From Gammaproteobacteria bacterium (GTDB lineage Bacteria > Pseudomonadota > Gammaproteobacteria > BMS3Bbin11): a DNA stretch of 64,000 nt. A model generated the notes under the pieces. That model was not told the DNA's origin and made no database searches. It worked only from the letters and a program-made list of their open reading frames with translations. The position numbers and the translations under genes are program-made. Below are positions 15,691-48,529 of this stretch, piece after piece. Position 1 is the stretch's first letter. Each line of letters opens with the position of its first letter. The stretch lies in NCBI GenBank assembly GCA_013150915.1, contig JAADJE010000112.1, forward strand, positions 318 through 64,317, written 5' to 3'.

Positions 15691-16054
15691 TGGATTGACC
15701 GTAATAGAGCCACCCCAAATGCGCTATCACCCACAAGGTCTGCAACAATTAATCCAGGGGACCTCCGATTCATTCAAAAAACCCATCATTGCACCCTCCG
15801 GGCATCTCCTGCAGGAGGATGACTACACCCTCCTCAACACCACGAGCGTCAAGGCCTGGCAATCTCATGTAATATAATCAAGTACTTAGCGTTTTATTCA
15901 CCACTATGTTCCCCACAATGGTGAATGAATCAGAGGTTCCCAGGACAAACGATTGGGCCAACGCTGATGAGAAGAACTCCCTTATGACTGATTGCTTATG
16001 CAGGTAAGGCGCATTACAGTAGCAGGCTTCTGGCAGGATATAATGATATGTAAT

Positions 16055-19090: not shown

Positions 19091-19170
19091 GGTTGAATGA
19101 AAAGACCCATGCTCTGGATTTACGCTATGTTTTGTCCGGAATACTGTATTTGTTGGGGCAATAAATCATT

Positions 19171-20274
19171 ATGAAAATTACAAACCGACTTGCCGTAGCC
19201 ACTATTCTGTTTGTCAGTGTTGCCCTGGCAAGTACGACATTAACCTGGTTGGCGGCTGAACGAGTTCGAAGTGATACATTTGCCAGCAAGAAAAGACTTC
19301 TGTTATCCGAACTTGAGTCGCGCCGCCTTCGTGTGGTGAATTACCTGGAGCAGGTCACGAATGATTTACGCATTATGGCTGGTTCACGTTTTGTCCAGCA
19401 TGCCTTGATCGATTTCGCAAAGGCCTTCAATAATACCGGGGGAAATGCAGAAAAAACACTGCAGCGTTTATACATAGAGGAAAATCCAAATCCTGTTGGC
19501 AGAAAACACCTGCTTATCATGGCCCGGGATGGCTCCTCATACAGTGCACTGCACCAGGAATATCACGACTGGACCAGCAGCATTGCCAAGGTACGTGACT
19601 ACTACGATATCTTCCTCGTCGATCCCCAGGGGAACATAGTCTATACCGTTTTCAAGGAAGACGACTTCGCTACAAATCTTTTCAATGGTAAGTACAAAGA
19701 CACCGAACTGGCACAGGTCTTTTCTGATGTAGCAGCCAGGCCTCAAACAGGTGAAATTTATGCTCGCGACTTTGTCCGCTACGCGCCAAGCCAAAATAAA
19801 CCTGCCTCTTTTTTCGGTACTGCGGTCAACTATGAAGGTGAATTTGTTGGTGCCATCGTCGTACAACTAAAACCAGAACCTTTCAACCGTATCATGCATT
19901 TTTCACGCAGCATGGGAGAGAGTGGCAAGACCTATATTGTTGGTAAGGACAAACTACTTCGCACGCGATCACGTTTCAGTGAAGAGGATGCTGTTCTCAG
20001 AACAAAGGTCGATACAAAATCCAGTAACGCAGCCCTGGAAGGACGAAATGGTATCTGGATCATTAATGACTATCGTGGTGTACCAGTACTATCCGCCTAC
20101 GCACCCATACAGGGGGAACGCACTACATGGGCCGTACTGGCCGAAATCGATGTAGATGAAGTGACATCAGAATCAGACGATCTTATTCTGATGATGGTGC
20201 TGGTCTCCGTGATCGCATCCACACTTGCATTCCTGCTTGGTTGGTTGCTGGCTGGGCGAGATGAGGAGAGCTAA
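19171..20274 (+). CDS. Sensor-only double-Cache-like membrane protein (TM, about 300 aa periplasmic domain, TM, no output domain)
   Basis: N-terminal TM (AVATILFVSVALAS), C-terminal TM (LILMMVLVSVIASTLAFLLGWLLAG), then only RDEES. The periplasmic part resembles the sensor of the upstream HD-GYP protein. Confidence 0.6.
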   Translation: MKITNRLAVATILFVSVALASTTLTWLAAERVRSDTFASKKRLLLSELESRRLRVVNYLEQVTNDLRIMAGSRFVQHALIDFAKAFNNTGGNAEKTLQRLYIEENPNPVGRKHLLIMARDGSSYSALHQEYHDWTSSIAKVRDYYDIFLVDPQGNIVYTVFKEDDFATNLFNGKYKDTELAQVFSDVAARPQTGEIYARDFVRYAPSQNKPASFFGTAVNYEGEFVGAIVVQLKPEPFNRIMHFSRSMGESGKTYIVGKDKLLRTRSRFSEEDAVLRTKVDTKSSNAALEGRNGIWIINDYRGVPVLSAYAPIQGERTTWAVLAEIDVDEVTSESDDLILMMVLVSVIASTLAFLLGWLLAGRDEES

Positions 20275-20529
20275 CTAACTCGCAATACTCTGATCATTCG
20301 GTGCCAACATTAGAATTAACGCCTGTGCATGCTCTGCCGCTTTTCTACCGATGTCGGTTAGATAGCCGCCATCGATTTGTGTAACCAGACCTTTTTCAAA
20401 TAAACGTTTTACGGCTTCTACGTGTGCTGTGTTGGCGCTTGAATGCACCTTGATGCCTTGCTGGGTCGTAGCCAGGTTGTAGCGAATAAGAATATCAATT
20501 TCAGCGATTTGCTCTTTCGAGTAGTGCAT
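20275..20529 (-). CDS. Small conserved hypothetical protein (84 aa)
   Basis: Clean ORF MHYSKEQIAEIDILIRYNLATTQQGIKVHSS..., no recognisable domain from sequence alone. Confidence 0.4.
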   Translation of the reverse strand: MHYSKEQIAEIDILIRYNLATTQQGIKVHSSANTAHVEAVKRLFEKGLVTQIDGGYLTDIGRKAAEHAQALILMLAPNDQSIAS

Positions 20530-20625: not shown

Positions 20626-20836
20626 ATTTTTTCCGATTACTCAGTTTTCGTGCCCAGGCAGTTGTTTGGCTGCGCATGAGGCTATAAAGTTGTTCCTTGA
20701 GGCGGTTGTCTCCCCGAGTCTGAGGGGTAGGGTTTTTGCTGTCTTTTTTTAATTGTCGCCTACCGTGCCTCCGTTTCTGATATTCCTTGACCTGTGTCCC
20801 CCACATATGTTTTATAGTAGCTCGAAGCATGCTCTA

Positions 20837-21532
20837 ATGAGAGAACTTGGGTCGCACGGATGGAGGGGGTTGATTTTGTCTAACCTGGCAGATTTACTTT
20901 TTCGCGCAGTAGATGGTGTTTTCGCCGTCGACGGAAAGCAGAAGATCATCTTTTGGAATTCTGCTTGTGCCCAGTTATTAGGCATACCCTCCAATGAGGC
21001 GCTGGGTCGCTCGTGCAGTTCGGTTGTGCGGGGAAAGGATCCCGCAGGGCAGCCTTTCTGCGGTGGGGGATGTTGCATGACCCAGTTGATCCGGGGTGAA
21101 AATGCTCCTGGGACGTTTCCACTTCGGGTACGTGACGGCAACGGAAAGGAGTTGAGACTCTGGGTAAGTGTCGTTCTGGTGCCTTCCCGGAGGAAGAACC
21201 GGTGGACATGCGTGCATCTGCTGCATAGAGGGGAGGCCGTGGATACCCTTAACGTGTTGGAGTACAGCATCTCGCAAGGACGACCAACCACCGAGCGTAA
21301 TGCCGGTAATAATGGTCACTCATCTCCATCTGCGATCTCATCACTGACCCCACGGGAACATGAGATTCTTCAGTTGCTGTCGGAGGGTCTTGCCGTTTTG
21401 GTAATTTCCGATTTGTTGAACATCAGTCCCGTGACGGTGCGGAACCACCTTCAGCATATTCAGGCAAAGTTCGGTGTGCATAGCCAGGTTGGGACAGTGG
21501 CCTATGCTTATCGGCACAATCTCATTGCGTAG
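20837..21532 (+). CDS. PAS-domain / LuxR(GerE)-type HTH transcriptional regulator
   Basis: PAS core (DGVFAVDGKQKIIFWNSACAQLLG) with a CGGGCC cysteine cluster. C-terminal LuxR HTH (LTPREHEILQLLSEGLAVLVISDLLNISPVTVRNHLQHIQAKFGV). The ORF-track start 20753 is possible; I prefer the ATG at 20837. Confidence 0.75.
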   Translation: MRELGSHGWRGLILSNLADLLFRAVDGVFAVDGKQKIIFWNSACAQLLGIPSNEALGRSCSSVVRGKDPAGQPFCGGGCCMTQLIRGENAPGTFPLRVRDGNGKELRLWVSVVLVPSRRKNRWTCVHLLHRGEAVDTLNVLEYSISQGRPTTERNAGNNGHSSPSAISSLTPREHEILQLLSEGLAVLVISDLLNISPVTVRNHLQHIQAKFGVHSQVGTVAYAYRHNLIA

Positions 21533-21566
21533 CAGGCATAACCACCCGGAAGAGGGAGGAATAATA

Positions 21567-21842
21567 ATGGTAAAAAAGATCGCAGTGCTTGTCAGGGACA
21601 GACAGGGTGAAGCGCTCAGGATGGCACTGGGACTCACCCTGGTGGATGACATCATCGATGTATATGTGCTTGATAGAAAATTAGCGGGGACAGAACAAAA
21701 TCAGCTCAATCTTGAGTTAATGAAGGAACTGGAGATAAAAACATACTCTAATTATAAAAAAGGGAATGAAAGTATGGAATACCTTTCTACCGGGGAAATC
21801 GCTCACAAACTGCTTGAATACGACCACGTTTTACCCTATTGA
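21567..21842 (+). CDS. Small DsrE/DsrF-like family protein (91 aa, no Cys)
   Basis: The N-terminus follows the DsrE/DsrF pattern: MVKKIAVLVRDRQGEALRMALGLTLVDDIIDVYVLD. There is a strong SD (GAGGGAGGA) 7 nt upstream of the ATG at 21567. The ORF track extends to 21474. Confidence 0.45.
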   Translation: MVKKIAVLVRDRQGEALRMALGLTLVDDIIDVYVLDRKLAGTEQNQLNLELMKELEIKTYSNYKKGNESMEYLSTGEIAHKLLEYDHVLPY

Positions 21843-21846
21843 TATT

Positions 21847-22010
21847 TAGGGAACCTCTGATCAATTCATGAACGCGTATCTTACGCCTAAAATATCCAGT
21901 TTTTTCGTTGCAAATCTTCGCAATAGCTAGCTATTACGTGCGATTTACGCCTCAAACCTGAATATTTTAGATCATAATCTACTTCGTCCAGACACATCAG
22001 AGGTTCCTTA
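21847..22010. repeat. 164 bp element bounded by 15 bp inverted repeats (TAGGGAACCTCTGAT / ATCAGAGGTTCCTTA) with internal direct repeats and palindromes
   Basis: The inverted repeats match 14/15. Inside are two roughly 17 bp direct repeats ending TTACGCCT and the palindrome AATAGCTAGCTATT. The whole element is intergenic. Confidence 0.6.
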
Positions 22011-22046
22011 GGAAATAACGTAAATTAGGTGGACACCTTTGTACAA

Positions 22047-22068
22047 AAATGATGTAAATGCATCATTT
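22047..22068. promoter_or_regulatory. 22 bp palindromic operator-like motif AAATGATGTA-AA-TGCATCATTT (copy 1)
   Basis: About 95 bp upstream of the DsrE-like gene at 22162. A near-identical copy lies at 30943-30964. Confidence 0.5.
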
Positions 22069-22161
22069 CCTTCGTTAGCCACGAATCATAGTATTTTCAC
22101 ATACAGCGCTACAGTTGTTGGTTTGCGAGCTAGAAAATAGTTACCGAAGAATGAAACGACG

Positions 22162-22464
22162 ATGAAACTTGGCATCCTGGTAAATACGGATAAACATCTT
22201 GAGCACATACTGGGACTCACGAAAGCATCCGTAGCCAGAAATCATGAGACAAGTATCTTTGTTATGGACGAGGGAACAAGATTATTGGGAAACGATTTAT
22301 TTGTCGCACTGGCAGGGCTGCCAGCTGTGTCGATAACTCTTTGCGAGCATAGTGCAAAAGGTTACGGAATTAATACAAATAATTTATCAAAGGGAATCAA
22401 CTGTGCAAGCCAGTTTAATAACGCAATAATGAACCATAATGCTGACAGGGTGATTGTTTTATAG
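22162..22464 (+). CDS. DsrE/DsrF (TusD/TusC)-like sulfur-relay family protein, 100 aa
   Basis: MKLGILVNTDKHLEHILGLTKAS...IFVMDEG...ITLCEHSAKGYGI...DRVIVL has the same architecture as the TusC/TusD fold, including the conserved Cys position. Confidence 0.55.
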   Translation: MKLGILVNTDKHLEHILGLTKASVARNHETSIFVMDEGTRLLGNDLFVALAGLPAVSITLCEHSAKGYGINTNNLSKGINCASQFNNAIMNHNADRVIVL

Positions 22465-22512
22465 AAACGAAAAAATCGTGATACGTAGGTACGTATGTGT
22501 GCATGCATGACA

Positions 22513-22683
22513 ATGAGTATACTTCACATCTTGAATGACGGTTCGACCAAATTGTCCGATCAAATTATCGACGCGCATTCCAGAGAATGCCACACTGAGG
22601 TGGTTGATCTGAACAAAAAGGAAATCTCGTATGAGGATCTTGTTGACAAAATATTTTATTTTGAACGGGTCATCTCATGGTAA
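22513..22683 (+). CDS. Truncated/miniature DsrH (TusB)-like protein, 56 aa
   Basis: MSILHILNDG start and ...ISYEDLVDKIFYFERVISW end mirror the DsrH/TusB termini (MSILHIV..., DY..FV.L....W), but the central roughly 40 aa are missing. Confidence 0.4.
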   Translation: MSILHILNDGSTKLSDQIIDAHSRECHTEVVDLNKKEISYEDLVDKIFYFERVISW

Positions 22684-22717
22684 AGAAGGAGTAAACGGGC
22701 GGACAATAGACAGATTT

Positions 22718-22744
22718 GACAGACGTGGTCGTCCCTGTTTTTTC
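22718..22744 (+). terminator. Rho-independent terminator after the dsrEFH-like trio
   Basis: ACAGACGTGGTCGTCCCTGT hairpin followed by TTTTTT. Confidence 0.6.
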
Positions 22745-22819
22745 GCGATAAACTGCGCAAGTAAGCAAGAAAGTGTCGAGTCAGAGAGATGAGCCACCAG
22801 GAATGGGAGCAGGTTGTAA

Positions 22820-24646
22820 GTGATCCGAACCGATCTGAGTCATCGTAGCACTTCGTTTCCTTGTTCGAGGAGTGATATTTCGTTGTCTGATCCCGATAGT
22901 GTTTTTGACTTTAACCAGAGCAGGGCAAAGAAAAATTATGACGGTCTCCTGACCGTTCTGATTTCCCTGCTTACCCTTACGATATTTCTTGCACTGTTTG
23001 TCTTTCGTTCGCTGGATGATAACCGTCTCACCAGCTGGCAATGGGTATATACCGGCATGGACGCGTTTAGTATTCTGCCTGTGCTTGCCATCGGTATTTT
23101 TCTTGCATATCTACTCTCCAATGTTTCCCTCCCGGTGCGCAAACCAGCGATATGGCTTTTTATTTTTTCGTTTGCTGTTTCCGTTATCTTTTGGGGAGAA
23201 CCAGAGGTTATCGTGGATGCGTCGAGGTATTTAGTGCAAGCCAAGTATCTCGAACTATACGGTATTGGATATTTCTTTAAAGAGTGGGGCAATGCTATTG
23301 CGGTGTGGACGGATCTGCCGCTAGTCCCGCTGCTTTATGGTCTTATTTTTAAATTTTTCGGTGAATACAGAATAGGCACACAGATATTAAATAGTGTGCT
23401 GTTTTCCGGGACGGTTGTACTGACCTACCAGATTGGTAAGGTACTGTGGGATAAAACTGTTGGCATAAATGGAGGAATACTGCTTCTCGGTATGCCTTAC
23501 CTGTTTACCCAGGTGCCGCTCATGCTGGTTGATGTGCCAGCGATGTTCTTTTTTACCCTCGCCCTCCTTACAACGATCAAGGCCCTCAGACAAGGCGGTT
23601 CAGTGTTGCTGATATTGGCATCAGTAACAATCGTGTTTGCGATGTTATCCAAGTATTCAGTTTGGTTAATGTTAAGTGTTATCCCTGTCATTTTCCTGGC
23701 TCATATGCCATACGGAAGGAAAGTGATTCTTCAACGGGCAGCTGTGATATCCCTGGGTGCGGCACTCCTTATTGGCTTGGTCTTACTCTGGAAATTTAGT
23801 GTGTTTGTAGACCAACTGAAGTTTCTACAAAGTTATCAGGTGCCAGGACTCAGGCGCTGGGGTGAGAGCTTTACATCTACATTCTTCTTTCAGATACACC
23901 CTTATATTACGCTGGCAGCACTGTTTTCAATTTATGCAGGCATTAAAAAGAAAGATTCTAAATATGCAATCATTAGTTGGTTATTACTGCTGATTGTTGT
24001 TCTGGAGATTAAGCGGGCGCGGTATCTTATCGTGGTGTTACCGATGCTGGCACTGATGGCATCTTACGGGATGAGAGAAATTAGAAATATAAAAATACGC
24101 AAGTTTATTGTTTCGTCTGCCGTTGTATCAGCACTTGTGATAGCGATCTTCGGATATTTGCCTTTTTTGCAAAAAACAAGTGCTGTTAATCTTACCCAGG
24201 CCGGGAAATATCTCGATACCATGGATGCTGAAACAATCGAAGTGATAACGCTTCCACCGTTTCGCTCAATTGTTAATCCAGCTGTTTCGGTTCCTGTTCT
24301 CGATTTATTTACCCAAAAGACGCTTTTGTATCGGTATGATAAATATTCACTTACAAGACCTCCATCGATCGAGAAATCTTCCTTGAGATTCACGTGGGAA
24401 TATAAGAATCCCGAATACTTTATTGCCGATGTTGATAGATCTACAGATACTTCAAAAAAGCACATTCCGGTAGCCATTATTTTTGGTGGCCGTAACCAGA
24501 TTCTTCCAGCTCGAATAGCAAAGAGGATAGAGGGCTATCGTATGACTAAAGAATTGATGGTTTTTGACCGGGTGTTTAAATACCAAACGATGATTCGGGT
24601 GTACCAGCCATTACAGACCCTGACCAGTAACGACCCGTTAGCTTAA
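22820..24646 (+). CDS. GT-C fold glycosyltransferase, ArnT/PMT_2-like (polyprenyl-phosphate-sugar dependent), multi-TM with C-terminal periplasmic domain
   Basis: More than 10 TM helices. The loop/TM pattern DLPLVPLLYGLIFKFFGEYRIGTQILNSVLFSGTVVLTYQIG...GGILLLGMPYLFTQVP is characteristic of ArnT/PMT_2 (GT83/GT39-like). GTG start, uncertain. Confidence 0.65.
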   Translation: MIRTDLSHRSTSFPCSRSDISLSDPDSVFDFNQSRAKKNYDGLLTVLISLLTLTIFLALFVFRSLDDNRLTSWQWVYTGMDAFSILPVLAIGIFLAYLLSNVSLPVRKPAIWLFIFSFAVSVIFWGEPEVIVDASRYLVQAKYLELYGIGYFFKEWGNAIAVWTDLPLVPLLYGLIFKFFGEYRIGTQILNSVLFSGTVVLTYQIGKVLWDKTVGINGGILLLGMPYLFTQVPLMLVDVPAMFFFTLALLTTIKALRQGGSVLLILASVTIVFAMLSKYSVWLMLSVIPVIFLAHMPYGRKVILQRAAVISLGAALLIGLVLLWKFSVFVDQLKFLQSYQVPGLRRWGESFTSTFFFQIHPYITLAALFSIYAGIKKKDSKYAIISWLLLLIVVLEIKRARYLIVVLPMLALMASYGMREIRNIKIRKFIVSSAVVSALVIAIFGYLPFLQKTSAVNLTQAGKYLDTMDAETIEVITLPPFRSIVNPAVSVPVLDLFTQKTLLYRYDKYSLTRPPSIEKSSLRFTWEYKNPEYFIADVDRSTDTSKKHIPVAIIFGGRNQILPARIAKRIEGYRMTKELMVFDRVFKYQTMIRVYQPLQTLTSNDPLA

Positions 24647-24666
24647 ACGCTACAGGAGTTGATGAT

Positions 24667-26100
24667 ATGGAAATGCTTGCTAGTGAAAGAAAGAATCGGG
24701 TATGGGCCTTTATCATATTAGGCTTTTTTGCTCTGGTCAGTGTTGCGACCTTCGCCTATAACGAATATTACATTTACCTTTCTATCTACCTCTGGTTTGG
24801 TCTGATTTATGGGTTGGCCTTACAGTATGGCAGGTTCTGTTTTTCCTCGGCATTCCGTGATCTGTTTGCGGTCGGTGTTGCAAGAATGGCGGTTGGAATC
24901 ACGATTGCTATCGCACTCTTCGCCTTGGTCGCCTCCCTGGTGACCGCACAGGGCTTAAGCACGTTTCATCCTGCGCCCTCGGGTATTCACGCCGTCATCG
25001 CCGGATTTATTTTCGGAATGGGAATGGTGTTTGCGGGTGGTTGCGCATCAGGGTCTTTGTATAAAACCGGGGAAGGCAATATGAATGCCTTGATTGTGGT
25101 TTTTTCTATCAGCGTGTCCCAGGCTTTATTTGTCGACATCGGCGGATGGACCAATAAGCTTGTTCCGGAATCGTGGCATCACTCGGCACTTGCAAAAGGA
25201 CTTCCTGCGTCAATAAACGTGGGCGACGGCTGGATGGATCAGTATCTGGCTGGCTATGTCTGGAACCATCCAGTGACAACTTTTGCGAAAATGCTGGGTT
25301 GGGAAAATTCCTCGGCATTGGGGGCGATTGTGGGTAATTTTCTCATTGGTGTAATATTACCTTCGGCATTACTTCTAGGTGTGGTCTATTTTGTCTGGTC
25401 ACGTAAGGCCTTTGTCAGGAAAATGCTCAAGCAGGGCAAGGAAAAAATGACGCTGCTTGATGAAGTGAAAGGCTATTGGGCGATGCTGTCGGCCTCCAAA
25501 CGAACAGCGATCGCAGGCCTGATTATCGGGGTTGCAGCAGGCTTGCACATGCTGGTGCTGCAAGGGGCACGGGTCAAGTTTGGCGTCAAGAATGCAGGCG
25601 CACTGCTGGAGAGAATGGGCTTCGATTATGGTATATCTGTGAACGGTACTGTCTTCGATCCCGGTTACTGGTATGTGACAACACAGGAGGCACAATGGGT
25701 TGGCTGGATGTTACAGAAAACAACCGGTGCTAACTATATGGATAATGTATTTTTCGGTTACGTCAATGGAATACCTAATCCCGCTATTAATCCAGCGGAC
25801 TGGATGTCACTCGCAACCATTGGTGGTGCCGCCATCATGGCATTGTTGTACAGTGAATTTAAATTTAAAAAACCCACTCTCGAGCTTGCCACCTGGGCGA
25901 TCATAGGGGGTACCCTGATGGGTATAGGTGCACGCCTGGCGCTCGGCTGTAACATTGGTGCATTTTTTATACGGGTGGCGAATGGTGATCCCTCAGGGTG
26001 GTTATTTGGTATAGGTATGGTTCCCGGCGCATATGTTGCGGTTAGGTTCTTCAATTGGTGGACCGAGAGAAAAATGGAAAAACAGGGTTTTGGTTTGTAA
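24667..26100 (+). CDS. YeeE/YedE-family thiosulfate/sulfur-compound transporter (two-repeat type)
   Basis: GRFCFSS and GGCASGS motifs, then a second repeat with GCNIGAF; about 10 TM; 477 aa. Immediately followed by a TusA-like gene (the yeeE-yeeD arrangement). Confidence 0.85.
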   Translation: MEMLASERKNRVWAFIILGFFALVSVATFAYNEYYIYLSIYLWFGLIYGLALQYGRFCFSSAFRDLFAVGVARMAVGITIAIALFALVASLVTAQGLSTFHPAPSGIHAVIAGFIFGMGMVFAGGCASGSLYKTGEGNMNALIVVFSISVSQALFVDIGGWTNKLVPESWHHSALAKGLPASINVGDGWMDQYLAGYVWNHPVTTFAKMLGWENSSALGAIVGNFLIGVILPSALLLGVVYFVWSRKAFVRKMLKQGKEKMTLLDEVKGYWAMLSASKRTAIAGLIIGVAAGLHMLVLQGARVKFGVKNAGALLERMGFDYGISVNGTVFDPGYWYVTTQEAQWVGWMLQKTTGANYMDNVFFGYVNGIPNPAINPADWMSLATIGGAAIMALLYSEFKFKKPTLELATWAIIGGTLMGIGARLALGCNIGAFFIRVANGDPSGWLFGIGMVPGAYVAVRFFNWWTERKMEKQGFGL

Positions 26101-26136
26101 TCTTCAGGACAATAACAGGTAGCAAAGGAGGTCATT

Positions 26137-26388
26137 ATGACGATGAAATTTGAACAGACAAATGAAGGAAATTACCTGTTAGATGTGACGGGGTATGTTT
26201 GCCCACACCCACAGATTTACACCAAGAAAGCATTGGAAAGAATCGAACCGGGTGATGTTTTACGGGTGATATTCGACAACCCATCTTCTGGGGAATCGAT
26301 TTCCACCATGTGTGAAAATACGGGTGATGAAATCCTCGAGAAGAAAAAAGAGGGGGGTGCTTTCATATGGAATATACAAAAAATTTAA
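26137..26388 (+). CDS. TusA-like sulfurtransferase (YeeD/TsuB-like)
   Basis: LDVTGYVCPHPQIYTKKAL carries the CPxP motif of TusA. 83 aa. Confidence 0.85.
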   Translation: MTMKFEQTNEGNYLLDVTGYVCPHPQIYTKKALERIEPGDVLRVIFDNPSSGESISTMCENTGDEILEKKKEGGAFIWNIQKI

Positions 26389-26446
26389 TTTTGTACAGCG
26401 CATCGTGCAGTGATGCGAAACGGGTGTTCAGAAAGAGTCTGTAGCC

Positions 26447-26638
26447 ATGAAAAGTGATCTTTGGGTGGTGATTATCGTTACGGTGACATTTATTGGATTT
26501 CTGATAGGGTACAGTCTTCCTCCCCTGGTAGAGACGGGCCTGTTAACCGGGAAGGGGGGTGAACAGGCTGAAATGACACGAGAACTGGGTAAGGACATGG
26601 AGCAGTATTATCGCGACTTGCAAAAGGACGACGAATGA
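26447..26638 (+). CDS. Small single-pass membrane peptide, paralog 1 (63 aa)
   Basis: MKSDLWVVIIVTVTFIGFLIGYS TM then VETG...EQYYRDL acidic tail; a paralog follows. Confidence 0.55.
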   Translation: MKSDLWVVIIVTVTFIGFLIGYSLPPLVETGLLTGKGGEQAEMTRELGKDMEQYYRDLQKDDE

Positions 26639-26680
26639 GAATGCCTGAATCTATACGACTGTGAACAAAGGAGTAAAGCG

Positions 26681-26890
26681 TTGAAAAACAACCTTTGGAT
26701 GTTAATTACACTGGTAGCAGGACTGCTGGGTTTTCTTGCAGGTTACGGTATATCATTTTCTACGGGTGTGGAGCCTGGTTTTTTTGAGGCAGTGGAGACG
26801 GGCAGTTATGGTGGTGGAAGTACTGGAGAAGTTACCGAGGGGATTAGTGCGGAAGACCAGGAATATTACCGTAAATTATTGGAAGAGTGA
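26681..26890 (+). CDS. Small single-pass membrane peptide, paralog 2 (69 aa)
   Basis: TTG start with AAAGGAG 7 nt upstream. MKNNLWMLITLVAGLLGFLAGYG TM then a Gly/Ser/Thr/Glu-rich tail with VETG and QEYYRKL. Confidence 0.55.
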   Translation: MKNNLWMLITLVAGLLGFLAGYGISFSTGVEPGFFEAVETGSYGGGSTGEVTEGISAEDQEYYRKLLEE

Positions 26891-27189
26891 GATTGACAGG
26901 AAATATAGGCCTTACCGATTGTGAGACTAAAGAGGTCATCATTCTCGGTACTGGTCTCGCAGGTTCTGGGACCGTACATGCCTTGTCTTATTCTAGTTTT
27001 AATTCCAGTACGGGAACAGATATTCTTGTCAATGAAGCAGATAGGACGGTCGGTGGTCTGCCTAAAACAGTTAAGTACTGCGATTACAACATGGAGCCTG
27101 GTGTCGTTGCAGCCAAAGAAATGATAGCGGGTAGTTTTGTAATAATAAAAGAGCAGGGCCCATTTTCCCCGACAGGGATCAACTTATGA
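26887..27189 (+). pseudogene. N-terminal fragment of an FAD-dependent amine-oxidase/desaturase-like oxidoreductase (gene remnant)
   Basis: Has the GxGxxG dinucleotide-binding motif (KEVIILGTGLAGSGTVHAL) plus DILVNEADRTVGG (the EA-DR-GGR motif). The ORF is only 100 aa and overlaps both neighbours. Confidence 0.4.
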
Positions 27190-28673
27190 AATGTGCATTG
27201 ATCCATCCGGCATGGTTTCCTGAAGAAATATTTCCTTCCAGAACGGTTGCCTCGCAAATTAATTACTGGCAGCCACTGGGAATCCTGTATGTGGGCGCCA
27301 GTCTTCTGAAAGCGGATCATGACGTAAAGTTTTTTAACGGTGCATTCATGTCACATGAAGAGCTGATGCACCGGGTAAAAGAATTTAAACCCGATTTTAC
27401 AGGCATTTATTCTACCAGCTTCGGTTGGCCAAAGGCCATGAAGACAGCGGAGGCTATCAAAAAGCTTGATAAGAACATATTTACCTGTGTTGGTGGGCCC
27501 TATCCGATTGCCGTGCAAGAGCGGTGTTTAAACGATCAAAGCACAAGTATCGATGCCATCGTCACAGGTGAGGCGGAACTGACCATGGTCGAGCTGCTGG
27601 CGAGGCTTCAGCAAGGGAAAGACCTCGAGGGTGTTCAGGGGCTGGCTTTCAGGCAGGGTTCGAGGGTCATCAAGAACCCATTGAGACCATTGACCGAGGA
27701 TCTGGATATTCTACCTTTTCCCGCACGCGAGCTGTTGGGTGATATGAATCAATATATTCCACCACCGGCGACATACCGGAGAAAACCGGTCACTACCCTT
27801 ATAAGCTCCAGGGGATGCAACAGAAGGTGCATCTTCTGCTTCCAGATCGATAAGGAAAGGAAAAGCGGTAAGCGTGGTATCCGCTTCCGCAGCGTCGAGA
27901 ACGTCCTCCAGGAAATAGAGCTCTGTCTCAGGCAGGGTTACCGTGAGATCAAGTTTATTGACGACACCTTTGCCGCTGATTATGACCGGGCCATGCAGAT
28001 ATGCCAGCAGATAAAAGCACGGCAGCTTGATTTCACCTGGTTCGCCTCAGCCTGTGTCAACCAGGTTGATAAACCCTTGCTCCAGGCTATGAAGGAGGCC
28101 GGTTGCTGGTCCATTCTGTTTGGTGCCGACAGTGGTGTCCAGAAAACTCTCAATACACTCAGGAAAGGAACCACCCTTGAGTTCATACGCAGGGATGTGC
28201 GTGCAGCAAAAGAAGTCGGCCTGAAAGTCAGCACCCCTTTTATATTTGGCGCGCCGGGAGAAACTTTTGCAGACGGGTTGAAAACCATTGAATTTGCTAT
28301 AGAGCTGGATGCCGACCTGGCAAACTTCCACGCCCTGACGCCATTTCCGGGTACCTATCTCTACGATAATCTGGATAAATTCGGCACTGTTTCTGGCGAC
28401 CTCTCAGACCGTACCTATCAGTCGGCCGCGTTTACCCCGTATACCATGACCCGTGATGAAATCTTAAGCTTACGCCAGCTGGCATTCAGGCGTTTCTATT
28501 CCAGGCCGAAATTTTTAGTTAGAAGGCTGATGGAAATCAGGACCTTGAACGACTGCAAGGCCGCGGTCAGTGGTCTGAGGAGTCTGTTCTGGCTCTGGGC
28601 AGGCAACAATTTGTTTTATAGACGAAAAAAGGGGGCGCTGACACCCGTTGAATTAAGTGTTCCTAAAAAGTGA
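27186..28673 (+). CDS. B12-binding-domain radical SAM protein (class B rSAM)
   Basis: N-terminal B12-binding-like region (FTGIYSTSFGWPKA, TCVGGPYP) and the CNRRCIFCF CxxxCxxC radical-SAM motif; 495 aa. Confidence 0.8.
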   Translation: MKCALIHPAWFPEEIFPSRTVASQINYWQPLGILYVGASLLKADHDVKFFNGAFMSHEELMHRVKEFKPDFTGIYSTSFGWPKAMKTAEAIKKLDKNIFTCVGGPYPIAVQERCLNDQSTSIDAIVTGEAELTMVELLARLQQGKDLEGVQGLAFRQGSRVIKNPLRPLTEDLDILPFPARELLGDMNQYIPPPATYRRKPVTTLISSRGCNRRCIFCFQIDKERKSGKRGIRFRSVENVLQEIELCLRQGYREIKFIDDTFAADYDRAMQICQQIKARQLDFTWFASACVNQVDKPLLQAMKEAGCWSILFGADSGVQKTLNTLRKGTTLEFIRRDVRAAKEVGLKVSTPFIFGAPGETFADGLKTIEFAIELDADLANFHALTPFPGTYLYDNLDKFGTVSGDLSDRTYQSAAFTPYTMTRDEILSLRQLAFRRFYSRPKFLVRRLMEIRTLNDCKAAVSGLRSLFWLWAGNNLFYRRKKGALTPVELSVPKK

Positions 28674-28745
28674 CCAGCGTTCAGCAATCGCTATTCAAGG
28701 CGGCCTCTATTCATGAATTAACGGGGGTACCCTTAAGTCAGTACG

Positions 28746-29825
28746 TTATAATTGTACGTACTCTTTGGCCAGGGTCGGATACAGTCGGGGGTTGAACAGG
28801 ATGTTTGTAATAAAATAGCACTCGTGTGTGCAATAGCACTGCTTGTTATGGATAGAATCCAGCACGGGTCTGGCCTTCTCGGAACGAACGATTTTCTTCA
28901 TGTTGTAGTTATAGTCTCTAACATTGCCAAAACGGGTTGAGAGAATTTCACAGGGATAGACATCTCCGGTTTCCGTCAGTACCAGGTTTAGTCTCCCGGC
29001 GTAGCATGGAATGTGTCTTTTCTGGGCGAGCAGCGTCTGATGGATCAAACGGCGCTGTACAATATCCTGAGCGGCTTTCAGTTTGGCACCACGAAAGCGG
29101 TATAGGCTGGATGTTCTGTTTTTTAGATTTCTCTCAAGCCGGTCAATCGCACAACGGTATTTTTCGTAATCCACTTCTTTAAAATGTGAATCTGCAAGTC
29201 TGCCTCGCACCATCGAAATAGTGTGTGTTTTAATATTTGTCAGATCCTGTACAAAATCAATGATCTCATCCATTTTGTCCTGGTTTTCGGAAAGAAATAC
29301 GGTGTTGATGCCGAGTTCGAAATTTGGATATTGTTGCAGCAGTTCACCAAGCAGGCGATAAGTCTGCATGGTTTTATCAAAGCAACCCGGCGTATCGCGT
29401 AGCACATCGTGATCGCCATGCAAGCCATCAAGAGAAAGCTTGACGGTGACGACAGACTTTTTACAGTATTTTAGAATTTGTTCTGTCTTGTCTTTAATCA
29501 TATCTGGCATCAGACCATTGGTGGGAAAGAGCATCATGACAGGCTTGTTATAATCGTAGAAAAGCTTGCTTATTTCTACAAGATCCTTTCTCAGGTAGGG
29601 TTCACCACCGGAGAAGGCCAGCCACAACAGTTTACCCAGTGATAAAGAGATTTTTTTAATTTCATCAAGTGAAAGCTCTGCTTCGCTGCCCTCCTTGTTG
29701 TGGGTGTTGTCAACATAAAAGCAGAAGGGGCATCGAGCATTACACTTACGGGTGACAAAAAAAGTGAGTTGAACAGGCTGCCCCTTCGAGAGTATAGAAG
29801 CTGTGTGACGCAGTGGAGAATACAT
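28746..29825 (-). CDS. Radical SAM enzyme with C-terminal SPASM/twitch-like Cys cluster
   Basis: CNARCPFCF CxxxCxxC near the N-terminus and a C-terminal CYCTHEC cluster. The start reassigned to the ATG at 29825 (MYSPLRH) overlaps the GT2 stop as TGATG; the ORF-track start is 29951. Confidence 0.75.
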   Translation of the reverse strand: MYSPLRHTASILSKGQPVQLTFFVTRKCNARCPFCFYVDNTHNKEGSEAELSLDEIKKISLSLGKLLWLAFSGGEPYLRKDLVEISKLFYDYNKPVMMLFPTNGLMPDMIKDKTEQILKYCKKSVVTVKLSLDGLHGDHDVLRDTPGCFDKTMQTYRLLGELLQQYPNFELGINTVFLSENQDKMDEIIDFVQDLTNIKTHTISMVRGRLADSHFKEVDYEKYRCAIDRLERNLKNRTSSLYRFRGAKLKAAQDIVQRRLIHQTLLAQKRHIPCYAGRLNLVLTETGDVYPCEILSTRFGNVRDYNYNMKKIVRSEKARPVLDSIHNKQCYCTHECYFITNILFNPRLYPTLAKEYVQL

Positions 29826-30829
29826 CAGGCCTTCTCCAGCAGCGTGCGCCCAACTGTAAAGTATCTGGCCAGACCGGCAAGTGCGCCAATGCCTACTGCC
29901 GTAGGGTAGAGAAACAGGTAATAAGACGTTGCGGCAAGTGCAAACAGCCATCCTTTCGTGCGGTAAAATGCCATCAGTAACCCCCTGTTCAGATACAGAT
30001 CAATGGCAAGAATCAAGGGGATTAGTGATATAAATGCCCTGTTCTCAGTCAAAAGAAAAACAAGAAAAAGAATCACGATAGAAAACCAGGTAGCTACATT
30101 GATTTTCAGACCTATGGATGCGGTACCAGAGTCGGCAAGTACATCGTTGTTTTTTATGGAATACATAGTCCAGTACATTGATTTTCTGATGGCATTGCGT
30201 AAAGAACGATACAGGGAGAAATTAAATATGTGCTGTACCTGGATAGCCGTTTCCATGACAAGCCTGTATCCGTCCTGGCGCAATCGATGACTAAAATCTA
30301 CATCTTCGATTATCGGCAGGAAGGTCTCGGTAAATCCGCCGCTTCTGTGAAAACTCCGGGCGTTGATAACCATGGCATGAGTGGCGATATAGTCGGGATG
30401 TTCTACATCTCGGGTCTCTGAATAATTGATAAAGATAGACTGAAACAGACTGAAGAAGCTGTTATCGAATGGAATGCGTGTATAGGTGCCGCCGACAACG
30501 GTAGTGGGGCCTGCCAGGGAGGCAGTTTGGCTGGCAATGGAAAGGGTATTTTTCTGCAGGATGCAGTCGGAATCGGTAAAAAAGAGTATATCTCCACTGC
30601 AGTTGGCGGCCCCAATATTTCTTGCCTGTGCTGCACCGCAGCGTGACTTCAGCCGGATGAGCTTGCAGGGGAAACTTTTTATCACCTCGATCGAATTATC
30701 CCTGGAGCAGTCATCGACGACTATTACCTCGAAGTCGCGGAATGTAGATGCAAAGATCGCTTCCAGGCACCTTCCTATTGTGGCACCTCCCTGATAGTTG
30801 GGAATAATAATCGAGACAAATTTATCCAT
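29825..30829 (-). CDS. GT2-family glycosyltransferase with C-terminal TM helices (polyprenyl-phosphate sugar synthase-like, ArnC/GtrB/DPM1-like)
   Basis: IIIPNYQGGATIGRCL...VVDDCSRD...TDSDC (the DxD motif) and about 3 C-terminal TM helices; 334 aa. Confidence 0.75.
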   Translation of the reverse strand: MDKFVSIIIPNYQGGATIGRCLEAIFASTFRDFEVIVVDDCSRDNSIEVIKSFPCKLIRLKSRCGAAQARNIGAANCSGDILFFTDSDCILQKNTLSIASQTASLAGPTTVVGGTYTRIPFDNSFFSLFQSIFINYSETRDVEHPDYIATHAMVINARSFHRSGGFTETFLPIIEDVDFSHRLRQDGYRLVMETAIQVQHIFNFSLYRSLRNAIRKSMYWTMYSIKNNDVLADSGTASIGLKINVATWFSIVILFLVFLLTENRAFISLIPLILAIDLYLNRGLLMAFYRTKGWLFALAATSYYLFLYPTAVGIGALAGLARYFTVGRTLLEKA

Positions 30830-30942
30830 CGTTTATTGATAAAAAAACAAAAAATCATAATAGCAGAGTCCGTCCCGGTAGTCTCCGGGGCTGTATGACA
30901 AGGCAGGCTTTTTCAGTTACTTCAACTACCGGGTATCCTGGA

Positions 30943-30964
30943 AAATGATGCAGATGCATCATTT
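30943..30964. promoter_or_regulatory. 22 bp palindromic operator-like motif AAATGATGCA-GA-TGCATCATTT (copy 2)
   Basis: Perfect 10 bp arms in the divergent region between the GT2 gene (-) and the rhodanese gene (+). It matches the motif at 22047-22068. Confidence 0.5.
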
Positions 30965-31166
30965 CATTTTTTGCATACAGGTATTCTAATTAGCATAGGA
31001 TCGTCAAAAAAAATTTGACTGTCCCGGCGAGTGCATTGTGGAACGTATGGTTGGTTCGCTCATGTGTTGATGGACTTGGCAACATTTTAGTGGCAATGCT
31101 CCATGTGCTGCGTCACAGATTGCGGCGGTGCTGAAATAAGGTTTAGGCGTTGTTTTGATTGGATGA

Positions 31167-32207
31167 ATGGATAAAGGACGGAGGCGTATCATGAATAATC
31201 TACGAAAATGGAAAATCTCAGTTACAGGGATTCTGGTACTATTTCTTGTCGGCTGGGCTGGAATCGCATCAGCATCGAGCTGGGTAAACCCTGACCTTCT
31301 TGTCACACCAGAGTTGCTCAAGAAGAATATCGACAAACCCGACTGGGTGGCTGTTGATTGCAGAAGTTTGAAGGATTATGCCAAGGGTCATATTCCAGGT
31401 GCTATCAGTCTCGGAAAACGCTGCAAGAAGGCACTAAGAGACCCCACCTCGAGGGTTTTTACAGATACCGCAAAGTATGAAAAGCTTTTTGGTAAGGTTG
31501 GTATTGGCAATGACACCCATGTCGTTTTTTATCATGGAGGTCTGAAAACGCTGACGGATGCTACCGTTGGATTCTGGATCATGGAGTATCTCGGGCACGA
31601 TAAGGTTCATCTCCTCAATGGAGGGCTCGATGCCTGGCGCAAGGCGGGTAACCGACTCAATAATAAACCCGTCAGGAAGAGCGCTAAAACATTCAAGGCC
31701 AAGATTGTGCCGAGCAGGTATTCCAAAACAAGTGAAGTGGTGGACATTGCCGAAGGAAGGCTCAAAGACGTACAACTTATAGATTCAAGGACAAAAAAGG
31801 AATATGACGGCAAGGATATCCGGGCAATCAGGGGCGGTCATGTACCCAACGTGACGATGAATAAATCACACATAGATACTGTCCTTCAGAAGAAAGACAA
31901 GAAGACAGGGAAGATGAAGCCGACGGGTTACCTTGATGCAGATCAGGCACATAAAGTCTTTGGCATGCTGGATAAAGATAAACGCACGGTAGCCTACTGT
32001 CAGACGGGTACACGTTCGACCCTGACTTATCTCCAGTTAAGACTGCTTGGCTTTAAGGATCCCGCAAACTGGGATGACTCATGGCGGGTTTATGGTTCCA
32101 CGCTGATGTATCCTGTTGCGGGCGAACAATGGTTTAACTTTGCCAAGATGAATAAGCAAATGAAAAAGCTTAAGAAGAAAGTCGCAGAACTCGAAAAAAA
32201 GCAGTAA
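31167..32207 (+). CDS. Secreted two-domain rhodanese (thiosulfate sulfurtransferase-like) with Lys-rich coiled C-terminal tail
   Basis: Signal/TM (ISVTGILVLFLVGWAGIASA), two rhodanese repeats with the active site AYCQTGTRS, and a C-terminal KKLKKKVAELEKKQ. Confidence 0.8.
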   Translation: MDKGRRRIMNNLRKWKISVTGILVLFLVGWAGIASASSWVNPDLLVTPELLKKNIDKPDWVAVDCRSLKDYAKGHIPGAISLGKRCKKALRDPTSRVFTDTAKYEKLFGKVGIGNDTHVVFYHGGLKTLTDATVGFWIMEYLGHDKVHLLNGGLDAWRKAGNRLNNKPVRKSAKTFKAKIVPSRYSKTSEVVDIAEGRLKDVQLIDSRTKKEYDGKDIRAIRGGHVPNVTMNKSHIDTVLQKKDKKTGKMKPTGYLDADQAHKVFGMLDKDKRTVAYCQTGTRSTLTYLQLRLLGFKDPANWDDSWRVYGSTLMYPVAGEQWFNFAKMNKQMKKLKKKVAELEKKQ

Positions 32208-32227
32208 GCAAATAAAGACAAGAACTT

Positions 32228-32266
32228 AACCAGATGGGATTTATAAATCCTATCTGGTTTGTTTTG
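32228..32266 (+). terminator. Strong hairpin terminator between the convergent rhodanese and DUF1858 genes
   Basis: AACCAGATGGGATT-tata-AATCCTATCTGGTT (14 bp stem, one G-U) followed by TGTTTTG. Confidence 0.7.
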
Positions 32267-32286
32267 GATAAGTAATCAGAGTCTCC

Positions 32287-32481
32287 CTAGTCAATTTTTT
32301 TATTTATTTCATCGAGCAGTGTCGCAAGGTCCCGGTTCTTTTCTTTGGCCAGTGTTTCTATCGACCACATCATGCTTGAATCGTGCCCACACCCACACAG
32401 CCCCAGTTCCATGAACCAATCTGTCAGTTCAGGGTAGTCTCTCAGTATTTCGCCTACTGTTTTTGAAGCATCGATTTCCAT
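32287..32481 (-). CDS. DUF1858-domain small redox protein (hybrid-cluster-protein-associated disulfide family)
   Basis: 64 aa; TVGEILRDYPELTDWFMELGLCGCGHD matches the DUF1858 pattern. Confidence 0.6.
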   Translation of the reverse strand: MEIDASKTVGEILRDYPELTDWFMELGLCGCGHDSSMMWSIETLAKEKNRDLATLLDEINKKID

Positions 32482-44056: not shown

Positions 44057-44156
44057 TGAACATACTGGCACCGTCGTAGCGAAATGCCAGATTTGACAAT
44101 AACCAGGGCTCACGGCACCATCCCCCTTACATCACTTTTCCGGCGGAGGTGAGGCC

Positions 44157-48516: not shown

Positions 48517-48529
48517 TGACGCTACTGTC

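Follow-up and report, generated by a model that had tools for sequence, protein, structure and literature searches.

A gene cluster conserved across uncultured bacteria interleaves a sulfur relay with candidate lipid-linked glycosylation and radical SAM genes

What function could join genes for sulfur trafficking to genes for glycosyl transfer and radical S-adenosylmethionine (SAM) chemistry? The question is raised by a cluster at positions 20753-32481 of a 64-kb stretch of contig JAADJE010000112.1 from a gammaproteobacterium (this whole stretch is hereafter the window), the closest relatives of which are metagenome-assembled genomes (MAGs) of Acidiferrobacterales and Thiohalobacterales. The gene inventory (Table 1) was confirmed by open reading frame (ORF) listing, translation, and Pfam and NCBIfam scans; all of the genes listed in the initial annotation were found in place, and two identities were corrected. 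All results are computational and come from sequence comparison and predicted structures; L-numbers denote the loci of relatives, from genomes or metagenomes. The cluster recurs with the same genes in the same order across phyla. It is tentatively proposed, with somewhat less than even confidence, that it forms one functional unit, a sulfur-sensing and sulfur-fed pathway that would build a lipid-linked sugar and attach it in the periplasm to proteins with Tyr/Gly motifs.

A chance neighborhood was ruled out by two independent anchor scans. The first was anchored on the glycosyltransferase of class GT-C and covered one genome per species, yielding 293 genomes with a relative, and the best 80 loci were mapped by tblastn; the second was anchored on the radical SAM/SPASM enzyme and covered metagenome contigs, yielding at least 521 relatives, with 52 loci mapped. 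The same genes and the same order were recovered from both anchors, so the co-occurrence that the initial annotation needed if its genes were to form a system was borne out. The conserved order is (PAS-LuxR)(s92), DsrE-like, s62, GT-C, YeeE, and TusA, then (peptide), mutase, B12-binding radical SAM, the convergent SPASM and family 2 glycosyltransferase (GT2) genes, and (rhodanese). Among 41 GT-C loci with at least 9 kb of downstream sequence, YeeE and the B12 radical SAM gene were each present in 34, and all six downstream genes in 24. From the other side, 15 loci extended 8 kb or more past the SPASM gene; the B12 radical SAM and GT-C genes were present in 13 of these and the mutase, TusA, and YeeE genes in 12, while GT2 lay upstream of the SPASM gene in 50 of the 52 metagenome loci. 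Contigs whose GT-C homologs are 63% and 52% identical carry the whole cluster in the same order.

At least six phyla have the cluster, and its MAGs are labeled Gamma-, Beta-, and Alphaproteobacteria, Nitrospirota/Thermodesulfovibrionia, Rokubacteria, Actinomycetota, and Acidobacteria. It is likewise found on metagenome contigs, in the hundreds, of groundwater, sediment, and hydrothermal origin. Between Gammaproteobacteria and Nitrospirota-labeled MAGs, the B12 radical SAM enzymes are 62-71% identical and the SPASM enzymes 54-70%, with the B12 enzyme reaching 62-93% across phyla generally; these high cross-phylum identities suggest lateral spread under strong constraint. No cultured host was found among the 80 genome loci inspected, all of which are MAGs, and the uncultured state of the hosts may explain why the cluster went unnoticed.

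Some loci carry further genes. In 33 loci (e.g., L003 14009-14473) of the Nitrospirota- and Betaproteobacteria-type clusters, the peptide gene is followed by one for a universal stress protein (Usp), which the window lacks. In two lineages, genes for multihaem c-type cytochromes that have an MtrC/MtrF-like domain lie directly after the rhodanese gene (L001 and L002) or inside the cluster (L057 4898-5785); L057 also holds a type I restriction-modification methylase and specificity subunit (L057 10541-14181) after the mutase gene, at the usual site of the B12 radical SAM gene. The DUF1858 gene, an accessory member, is also found within the cluster in L005 and in Nitrospirota-type L019, L034, L039, L049, and L075.

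Four of the five enzymes (GT-C, GT2, the flavoenzyme, and the B12 radical SAM enzyme) point to carbohydrate chemistry. The GT-C protein scored above the Pfam PMT_2 cutoff (35 bits), and its AlphaFold2 model (predicted local distance difference test 78.8; predicted template modeling score 0.82) confirmed a GT-C fold at the level of predicted structure, with Foldseek matches to ArnT (5f15; TM-score 0.49/0.54), ALG12 (0.52/0.63), STT3/PglB (E-values down to 2.6e-7), and PMT. The motif D66-D67-N68-R69 (DDNR), which follows the first transmembrane (TM) helix in the first periplasmic loop, is invariant or nearly so, and the C-terminal periplasmic domain is conserved. The family numbers 1735 homologs, the best 120 of which are 50-79% identical; it has no NCBIfam family, and its profile gave no match to PDB sequences. 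The GT2 protein, of GT-A type, has an invariant D86/D88 pair (DxD) and a DSGTAS juxtamembrane motif. Its best NCBIfam match is MftF (90 bits against a cutoff of 280), ArnC scores 18-22 against 529, and its PDB matches are generic (DPMS, E 9e-4). Since a GT-C enzyme needs a donor linked to a lipid phosphate and GT2 is the sole candidate in the cluster for making one, GT2 is viewed as a candidate polyprenyl-phosphate sugar synthase. Its architecture, a GT-A domain plus C-terminal TM helices, suits this role.

The flavoenzyme gene is decayed in the window. What the initial annotation had described as an FAD-oxidoreductase fragment is indeed a fragment; its identity is corrected here to that of a UDP-galactopyranose mutase (UGM)-like gene. 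In a blastn comparison with L004, the closest relative, ~1190 bp of the ortholog are missing between 27078, where the alignment breaks off, and 27092, where it picks up again. An assembly artefact was ruled out because the same remnant is present in an independent, 98-100% identical metagenome contig, L084. Intact orthologs of 468-476 aa score 444-450 bits against NF005548 (cutoff 389), a model named 'PRK07208.1-4 hypothetical protein', and 60-68 bits against the Glf model TIGR00031, below its cutoff of 303.75. Their closest PDB entry is a eukaryote-type UGM (4dsg; full-length alignment, E 4e-28), and their invariant residues comprise G58-G59-H60 together with R180, R330, Y400, and Y435, which correspond to R176, R327, Y395, and Y429 of Trypanosoma cruzi UGM. 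These two arginines and two tyrosines bind UDP in the T. cruzi enzyme. The UGM alignment and the conserved catalytic positions favor a UGM-like enzyme over an amine oxidase of peptides or lipids or a phytoene desaturase.

For the B12-binding radical SAM enzyme, the HpnJ model gave 208 bits against a cutoff of 577.6 and the best PDB match was AprD4 (6fd2; 1.4e-27). Both of these nearest relatives by sequence act on sugars, which they rearrange or dehydrate, and the methylation that the initial annotation had read from the class of this enzyme is thus not favored. The SPASM enzyme was harder to place, with all of its NCBIfam matches at or below 85 bits (MftC, 47.6 against 265), CteB as its closest PDB entry (3.8e-11), and a generic similarity to AhbD/NirJ, CteB, and others; it has ~25 residues before the CX3CX2C motif and conserved C-terminal Cys motifs.

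By sequence, the parts of the cluster appear to belong to known superfamilies, and none of the parts reaches a curated cutoff for a named family, save the mutase with its 'hypothetical protein' model. The expectation of the initial annotation that no known pathway would claim the glycosyltransferase and radical SAM genes was upheld, as NCBIfam scores for HpnJ, MftF, and ArnC fell far below cutoffs; likewise, membership in the hopanoid, O-antigen, Arn, mycofactocin, and arsenosugar pathways was ruled out, with all curated models far sub-cutoff. The HpnI/HpnK/HpnJ hopanoid cyclitol-ether pathway shares an HpnJ-like B12 radical SAM enzyme and a clustered GT2 (as HpnI is). However, the score is far under the HpnJ cutoff, HpnI is not among the GT2 matches, and the hopanoid genes shc, hpnK, and hpnH were found neither in the cluster nor in the related loci.

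The most economical model would be lipid-linked glycosylation of the ArnC/ArnT, Ppm/Pmt, or decaprenylphosphoryl arabinose (DPA)/Emb type. The ArnC/ArnT, GtrB/GtrC, and Ppm1/Pmt pairs share with the cluster a membrane GT2, its GT-A domain cytoplasmic, together with a GT-C enzyme whose first periplasmic loop bears an acidic motif, and in the Arn pathway tailoring enzymes (ArnA, ArnB, and ArnD) are encoded alongside, as they are here. In contrast to ArnC/ArnT, the cluster has no flippase, its GT2 and GT-C are not orthologs of ArnC and ArnT, and its set of tailoring enzymes comprises a UGM-like mutase plus a pair of radical SAM proteins; furthermore, the described members of that family have neither the interleaved sulfur relay nor the dedicated small peptides found here. 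The mycobacterial system, in which UGM/Glf operates with decaprenyl-phosphate arabinofuranose and Emb/Aft, has in common a furanose-forming flavoenzyme alongside GT-C enzymes. AftA, AftB, and EmbB are among the structural matches of the cluster GT-C, but these are weak (TM-score 0.27-0.38), DprE1/E2 analogs are missing from the cluster, its hosts are Gram-negative or diderm, and its sulfur genes have no counterpart in that system. By analogy, the cluster may then represent lipid-linked periplasmic glycosylation with unprecedented additions, namely the sulfur relay, the pair of radical SAM enzymes, and proposed dedicated acceptors with tyrosine motifs.

The persulfide- or thiosulfate-handling parts of the cluster make up a full set that reaches from the periplasm to the cytoplasm and comprises the rhodanese, YeeE, TusA, the DsrE-like protein, and the Cys-free s92. 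In the rhodanese, the active-site Cys278 (CQTGTRS) is invariant, and signal peptides are visible in the window protein and in Nitrospirota-type orthologs. The YeeE and TusA genes adjoin each other in 53 of 83 genome loci. YeeE has three invariant cysteines (Cys58, Cys126, and Cys428; 53 sequences), which presumably play the role assigned to them in structural work on YeeE, and the TusA-type carrier has an invariant C22-P23-x-P25. Neither reaches a curated cutoff (YeeE: TsuA, 108 against 400, and YedE/FdhT, 129 against 350; TusA: YedF, 48 against 79, and TsuB, 31 against 147).

The initial annotation had counted three proteins with the DsrE/DsrF/DsrH fold. This holds in the structure model for s92, predicted to have a DsrF/TusC-like fold lacking any Cys (929 homologs); for the 100-aa DsrE-like protein the sequence support is weak, and for s62 there is none. 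The DsrE-like protein aligns to Pfam DsrE over its full length yet under the cutoff (E 1.5e-3), and the PDB entries matched by its profile, though weakly so, belong to the DsrE family alone (3mc3, 0.016; 2hy5, 0.15). Its Cys61 is invariant in 61 orthologs and its His12 and His28 invariant or nearly so, with the equivalence of Cys61 to Cys78 of DsrE only putative. The s62 gene always follows the DsrE-like gene, and s62 gave no Pfam, PDB, or profile-profile match; hhalign comparisons were null, ruling out that the three small proteins are recognizable paralogs of one another.

In known sulfur relays (TusBCD/DsrEFH with YeeE/YeeD, i.e., TsuA/TsuB), there is likewise a three-Cys YeeE beside a CPxP TusA-type carrier, and a Cys-bearing DsrE-like protein with a Cys-free partner of DsrF/TusC fold and a third small, subunit-sized protein. 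In contrast, at 100, 91, and 56 aa the subunits here fall short of the known ones in length, their divergence keeps them under Pfam or NCBIfam cutoffs, no TusE/DsrC protein or nearby MnmA, Dsr, or sHdr acceptor accompanies them, and the relay genes stand among glycosylation genes. A cysteine desulfurase (IscS/NifS-type) was dropped as a candidate cluster member: its gene, divergent from and adjoining the DsrE-like gene (L003/L016 7581-8726, minus strand), occurs in two loci of a single Nitrospirota-labeled lineage.

The two groups of genes share transcription units. On the plus strand, a 320-nt gap separates s92 from a tight run that extends from the DsrE-like to the B12 radical SAM gene with spacings from 4-nt overlaps to a 137-nt gap, the start of the B12 radical SAM gene overlapping the stop of the mutase remnant. 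On the minus strand, convergent to this operon, the start of the SPASM gene overlaps the GT2 stop by 4 nt, and the two genes are translationally coupled. On its right side, the rhodanese transcription unit is bounded by a strong hairpin with a T run. No known RNA was found in the cluster by Rfam.

A common regulator of these units is indicated by a palindrome, AAATGATGyAnATGCATCATTT, that occurs exactly twice in the window (Table 1; 0 expected in 100 shuffles). Relative to the starts predicted from -10-like hexamers (TAGTAT for copy 1; TATTCT, facing the rhodanese gene, for copy 2), the center of each copy lies ~42 bp upstream, presumably where a lux-box-type activator site is classically found. 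In orthologous loci, AATGATGCAnATrCATCATT was found at the same two positions, in the s92/DsrE-like and GT2/rhodanese gaps. The PAS-LuxR gene is present in ~22 of 83 genome loci, and the motif accompanies it in essentially every one (L001, L002, L005-L011, L013-L015, L022, L023, L031, L036, L044, L063, L067, and L079), a few having an additional copy upstream of the PAS-LuxR gene itself; loci without the PAS-LuxR gene have no match with up to two mismatches at either position. Thus, in proteobacterial versions of the cluster, both transcription units carry an operator-like palindrome that travels with the regulator gene. The co-regulation proposed in the initial annotation from the two copies in one genome therefore extends across genomes at both promoters, and the predicted regulon is phylogenetically footprinted. 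Because the PAS domain has three conserved cysteines (Cys88, Cys103, and Cys107; 27 orthologs), the regulator may be a sensor of redox state or sulfane sulfur. The likeness to LuxR-type regulons, which have lux-box palindromes of ~20 bp, lies in the GerE-type helix-turn-helix (HTH) and a predicted 22-bp operator near -42 at two promoters; the difference is a Cys-rich PAS sensor in place of an autoinducer-binding or receiver domain. The true start of the PAS-LuxR gene is probably the ATG at 20807 or 20837.

Candidate acceptors are encoded within the cluster itself. Peptide A has an N-terminal TM helix that ends in GFLIGYS and an acidic tail that ends in EQYYRDLQKDDE; Peptide B has the same helix and a tail with GSYGGG and EYYRKLLEE. 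Peptides encoded after TusA form a real family, found in nearly all lineages, with a conserved helix (MK.sLW.V.VV....GFL.GYS) and a variable tail, and the family has no NCBIfam model. Nitrospirota-type tails consist of 5-9 GGYGAP(S/A) repeats and end in GGYGK (GGYG[KR] for the family), Betaproteobacteria-type peptides of 50-56 aa have a single AGGYG[RKQ] or AAGYGR end, and Gammaproteobacteria have two paralogs, one with a single G(S/G)YG and both ending in (E/Q)YY(R/K)xL plus acidic residues. Since the N flank averages a charge of +0.8 and the tail -3.3, the charge distribution favors an N-in/C-out topology with a periplasmic tail.

In addition, six secreted or lipoprotein-like proteins in or beside Nitrospirota-type clusters end in APGY-COOH (Table 1), compared with 0-3 such ends for permuted tripeptides among 14,041 ORFs. 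The APGY end, perhaps akin to the GGYG[KR] ends of the peptides, may tag these proteins at the C-terminus for recognition or modification. From the peptide and APGY ends together, a tyrosine in a G/P-G-Y(-G) context recurs in cluster-encoded extracytoplasmic proteins. The motif and topology data strengthen, and do not prove, the suggestion of the initial annotation that glycosylated small membrane peptides are the target of the system.

In the proposed pathway, the mutase would make a nucleoside diphosphate (NDP)-furanose, and the two radical SAM enzymes would rearrange, deoxygenate, or possibly thiolate the sugar. The membrane GT2 would load it onto polyprenyl phosphate, and after flipping, GT-C would transfer it to an acceptor at the periplasmic face of the membrane. 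The likeliest acceptor would be the conserved tyrosine motifs (GYS/GGYG/PGY) carried by the co-encoded peptides and, where the locus is of Nitrospirota type, by the secreted APGY-ended proteins as well. The sulfur relay would either donate sulfur to the radical SAM step or couple the pathway to sulfur supply, and the Cys-rich PAS-LuxR regulator would switch both operons on upon a redox or sulfane-sulfur signal. The relay is counted in the same function because it is interleaved in the operon and shares its operator.

Several observations weigh against this pathway. GT2 is only marginally similar to DPMS, GtrB, ArnC, and PpgS and not specifically to polyprenyl-phosphate glycosyltransferases. 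No flippase of ArnE/F or GtrA type was found in the cluster or in recurrent neighbor families, no nucleotide-sugar synthesis genes besides the mutase were found in the cluster, and Pfam and NCBIfam scans of the cluster revealed no DsrC/TusE-like protein or recognizable sulfur-acceptor enzyme. The mutase is dispensable, being a remnant in the window and absent in L018 and L032, and the peptide tails diverge strongly among lineages (YYRxL in Gammaproteobacteria versus GGYG repeats elsewhere). Among the 41 long-flank GT-C loci, 4 are without any partner gene. Finally, a variant in two Nitrospirota-labeled loci (L027 15548-18900 and L040 12311-15615) is devoid of the YeeE, TusA, and DsrE-like genes and retains GT-C, mutase, B12 radical SAM, SPASM, GT2, and rhodanese genes; the cytoplasmic relay is therefore not needed for the sugar chemistry in those lineages. 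Between the B12 radical SAM and SPASM genes, this variant encodes the rhodanese, a Porin_O_P phosphate-selective-type porin, and two further proteins, of 232 aa (APGY-ended) and 91 aa.

The same variant bears on the main alternative, which is possible, if rather unlikely, namely that two separate functions are merely co-located and co-regulated and no sulfur enters the glycan. The rhodanese, YeeE, TusA, and DsrE-like proteins would bring in sulfane sulfur or thiosulfate, to be oxidized in dissimilatory metabolism or assimilated; GT2, GT-C, the mutase, and the radical SAM enzymes would remodel lipid A, another lipid, or a glycan of the envelope when the cell encounters reduced sulfur; and the peptides would be accessory subunits of the transporter. 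Separability is seen not only in L027 and L040, with their sugar genes and rhodanese and no YeeE or TusA, but also in L032, where the sulfur genes form a block on the opposite strand, and in L096, L102, and L105, where the GT2-SPASM pair lies ~7 kb off with housekeeping genes between. Also in its favor, many host lineages are sulfur oxidizers judging from their names, and a small cysteine-free single-TM protein stands beside the YeeE-like SoxT in Hyphomicrobium (PMC11582611). However, across phyla the GT-C gene is flanked by the DsrE-like genes and YeeE, and TusA and the peptide are followed within one operon by the mutase and B12 radical SAM genes; such interleaving and a shared operator are unexpected for mere neighbors. 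Moreover, no Dsr, sHdr, or Sox genes are linked to the relay within the 163 loci examined.

A more specific form of the one-unit pathway, in which imported sulfane sulfur is inserted by a radical SAM enzyme into a furanose-derived sugar and the resulting thiosugar or thiocyclitol is placed on Tyr-motif proteins via polyprenyl phosphate and GT-C, is considered unlikely. A precedent for its chemistry is AbmM, of the 4'-thionucleoside antibiotic albomycin, a radical SAM enzyme that swaps the furanose ring oxygen for sulfur from its own Fe-S cluster (PMC12691670). The two systems have similar ingredients, namely a furanose substrate (in the cluster implied by the mutase), auxiliary Fe-S clusters in a radical SAM enzyme, and a requirement for sulfur (PMC12691670). 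They differ in that AbmM belongs to a nucleoside antibiotic cluster, whereas the present cluster has membrane glycosylation and an external sulfur relay, and sulfur incorporation here is hypothetical.

A peptide-derived product, either a ribosomally synthesized and post-translationally modified peptide (RiPP) or mycofactocin-like, would have the radical SAM enzymes modify the Tyr-Gly motifs in the cytoplasm, GT2 glycosylate a tyrosine-derived moiety as MftF does, and the relay supply sulfur for thio-modification. The C-terminal Tyr of MftA resembles the GGYG[KR] and APGY ends of the cluster proteins. Mycofactocin biosynthesis (MftA-F) also shares a SPASM radical SAM enzyme (here coupled to GT2), a GT2 whose best NCBIfam matches are MftF and its relatives, and short peptides with conserved C-terminal Tyr motifs. 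Yet the MftF and MftC scores (90 against 280 and 48 against 265) are far under their cutoffs, equivalents of MftB (the RiPP recognition element, RRE), MftD, and MftE are lacking, and no RRE/PqqD-like domain, peptidase, or exporter was found in the cluster by Pfam or NCBIfam. The peptides are membrane-anchored or secreted, as the TM helix that would serve as leader and the signal peptides of the APGY proteins put the motifs outside the cytoplasm. Further, the flavoenzyme is a UGM homolog and not a peptide amine oxidase, the nearest relatives of the B12 radical SAM enzyme act on sugars, GT-C would have no role in such a pathway, and the presence of GT-C, UGM-like, and sulfur genes sets the cluster apart from the mycofactocin system. 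Altogether, a product of this kind appears quite improbable.

An equally doubtful idea turns on sulfur storage: glycosylated Gly/Tyr-rich envelope peptides would coat or tether periplasmic zero-valent sulfur, which the rhodanese would mobilize for import through YeeE, TusA, and the DsrE-like protein. The sulfur-globule proteins of Chromatiaceae are reportedly of Gly/Tyr-rich composition, and Gly/Tyr-rich, repetitive peptide tails, periplasmic rhodaneses, an anion-type porin in variant clusters, and hosts that appear to be sulfur-cycling lineages would all fit. This idea leaves the radical SAM enzymes unexplained, however; the gammaproteobacterial peptides, including those of the window, have almost no GGYG repeats, many host lineages are not known for sulfur storage, and no sequence similarity to Sgp proteins, at which no search was aimed, was found. 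Least credible is a selenium relay of YedE/YedF type leading to a selenium-containing glycoconjugate, toward which the best NCBIfam matches lean (YedE/FdhT, 129 bits, and YedF, 48 bits, slightly above the TsuA/TusA models, with several rhodanese matches to seleno-associated families) but all of them far under cutoffs, at a similarity that does not distinguish sulfur from selenium carrier families, and with no selD or other selenium-trait gene found in the cluster or the 64-kb window.

Table 1. Features of the cluster in the window and APGY-ended proteins of related loci (positions refer to the window unless a locus is named)
Feature	Position	Strand	Support
PAS-LuxR (GerE HTH) regulator	20753..21532	+	Pfam GerE 2.7e-15, PAS 4e-9
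s92, 91-aa cysteine-free protein, predicted DsrE/DsrF/YchN fold	21567..21842	+	Structure model
Palindrome copy 1, AAATGATGTAAATGCATCATTT, putative PAS-LuxR operator of the DsrE-like-to-B12 radical SAM operon	22047..22068		
DsrE-like protein, 100 aa, invariant Cys61	22162..22464	+	Pfam DsrE E 1.5e-3, under cutoff
s62, conserved small protein, 56 aa	22513..22683	+	Present in 60/83 loci
GT-C glycosyltransferase (PMT_2/GT39-like), 608 aa	22820..24646	+	Pfam PMT_2, AlphaFold2, Foldseek
YeeE/YedE-family sulfur (thiosulfate) transporter	24667..26100	+	Pfam Sulf_transp 7e-38
TusA/YeeD-like sulfur carrier	26137..26388	+	Pfam TusA 5.7e-20
Peptide A, 63 aa, single TM	26447..26638	+	Translation, family alignment
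Peptide B, 69 aa, TTG start	26681..26890	+	Translation, family alignment
UDP-galactopyranose-mutase-like remnant, 100 aa, in frame	26887..27189	+	blastn vs L004
B12-binding-domain radical SAM enzyme	27186..28673	+	Pfam B12-binding 3.9e-16, Radical_SAM 3.9e-21
Radical SAM/SPASM enzyme	28746..29828	-	Pfam Radical_SAM + SPASM
GT2 (GT-A) with 3-4 C-terminal TM helices	29825..30829	-	Pfam Glycos_transf_2 1.5e-26
Palindrome copy 2, AAATGATGCAGATGCATCATTT, divergent GT2/rhodanese intergenic region	30943..30964		
Secreted two-domain rhodanese	31167..32207	+	Pfam Rhodanese, two stretches, 2e-30
Terminator, 14-bp-stem hairpin + T run, between rhodanese and DUF1858 genes	32228..32259		
DUF1858 small Cys-containing protein, accessory member	32287..32481	-	Pfam DUF1858 4e-9
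APGY-ended protein	L003 21357-21752		
APGY-ended protein	L019 15916-16131		
APGY-ended protein	L027 16556-17254		
APGY-ended protein	L039 16426-16683		
APGY-ended protein	L040 13283-13981		
APGY-ended protein	L046 6858-7226		

The remainder of the window is ordinary chromosome, with genes for TruD, PurU, fumarase, RmlD, polyphosphate kinase, DapB, RNase R, AlaRS, and aspartokinase as well as methylcitrate-cycle and formate-dehydrogenase-like genes. Upstream of the cluster, 15992-20529 encodes a 1032-aa dCache-HAMP-GAF-HD-GYP signaling protein, a dCache membrane protein, and a DUF5669 protein; among other genomes, these are conserved beside the cluster solely in the near-identical L084. The gap from s92 to the first palindrome contains a nested inverted repeat of 165 nt (21847-22010) that folds much more stably than shuffled sequences (-45.3 kcal/mol, z -4.1). 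It has no Rfam match and looks like a small intergenic element of the repetitive extragenic palindrome (REP) or miniature inverted-repeat transposable element (MITE) kind; its terminal arm of 15 nt is found again at three further intergenic sites in the window (among them 15929-15943 and 32275-32289) and in a relative (L005 6256-6270). A region at 42023-49957 with a G+C content of 55-58%, versus ~47% elsewhere in the window, encodes a 677-aa fusion of a phosphoenolpyruvate (PEP)-mutase/isocitrate-lyase-family protein with citrate synthase, NAD-dependent formate-dehydrogenase-like subunits, and PrpD, and may be a laterally acquired methylcitrate/formate module. At gathering score, Rfam identified no family in the window besides one tRNA gene (50942-51025, minus strand).

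No description of the cluster was found in literature on its gene combinations, on GGYG peptides, or on sulfur-globule proteins, nor among curated families, and it does not figure in the literature examined on YeeE-like transporters and selenoproteomes. Likewise, no description of a sulfur-containing protein glycan, or of a Tus/Dsr-type relay coupled to glycan synthesis, was found in the searchable literature. If the cluster is one unit, it would constitute a widespread pathway, of which no description was found, linking inorganic sulfur uptake to cell-envelope glycosylation. It would also give a function to large 'hypothetical' families, such as those of s92 and GT-C, define a new substrate class for GT-C enzymes in the form of GYG/PGY tyrosine motifs, and bring new radical SAM chemistry on sugars, possibly including sulfur insertion. 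Should sulfur indeed enter the product, the finding would be categorically new: a sulfur-containing protein glycan made by a dedicated relay-to-glycosylation pathway that is widespread in uncultured sulfur-cycling bacteria. The Cys-rich PAS-LuxR regulator and its footprinted predicted operator would also provide a clean regulatory model for finding the sulfur signal to which these hosts would respond.

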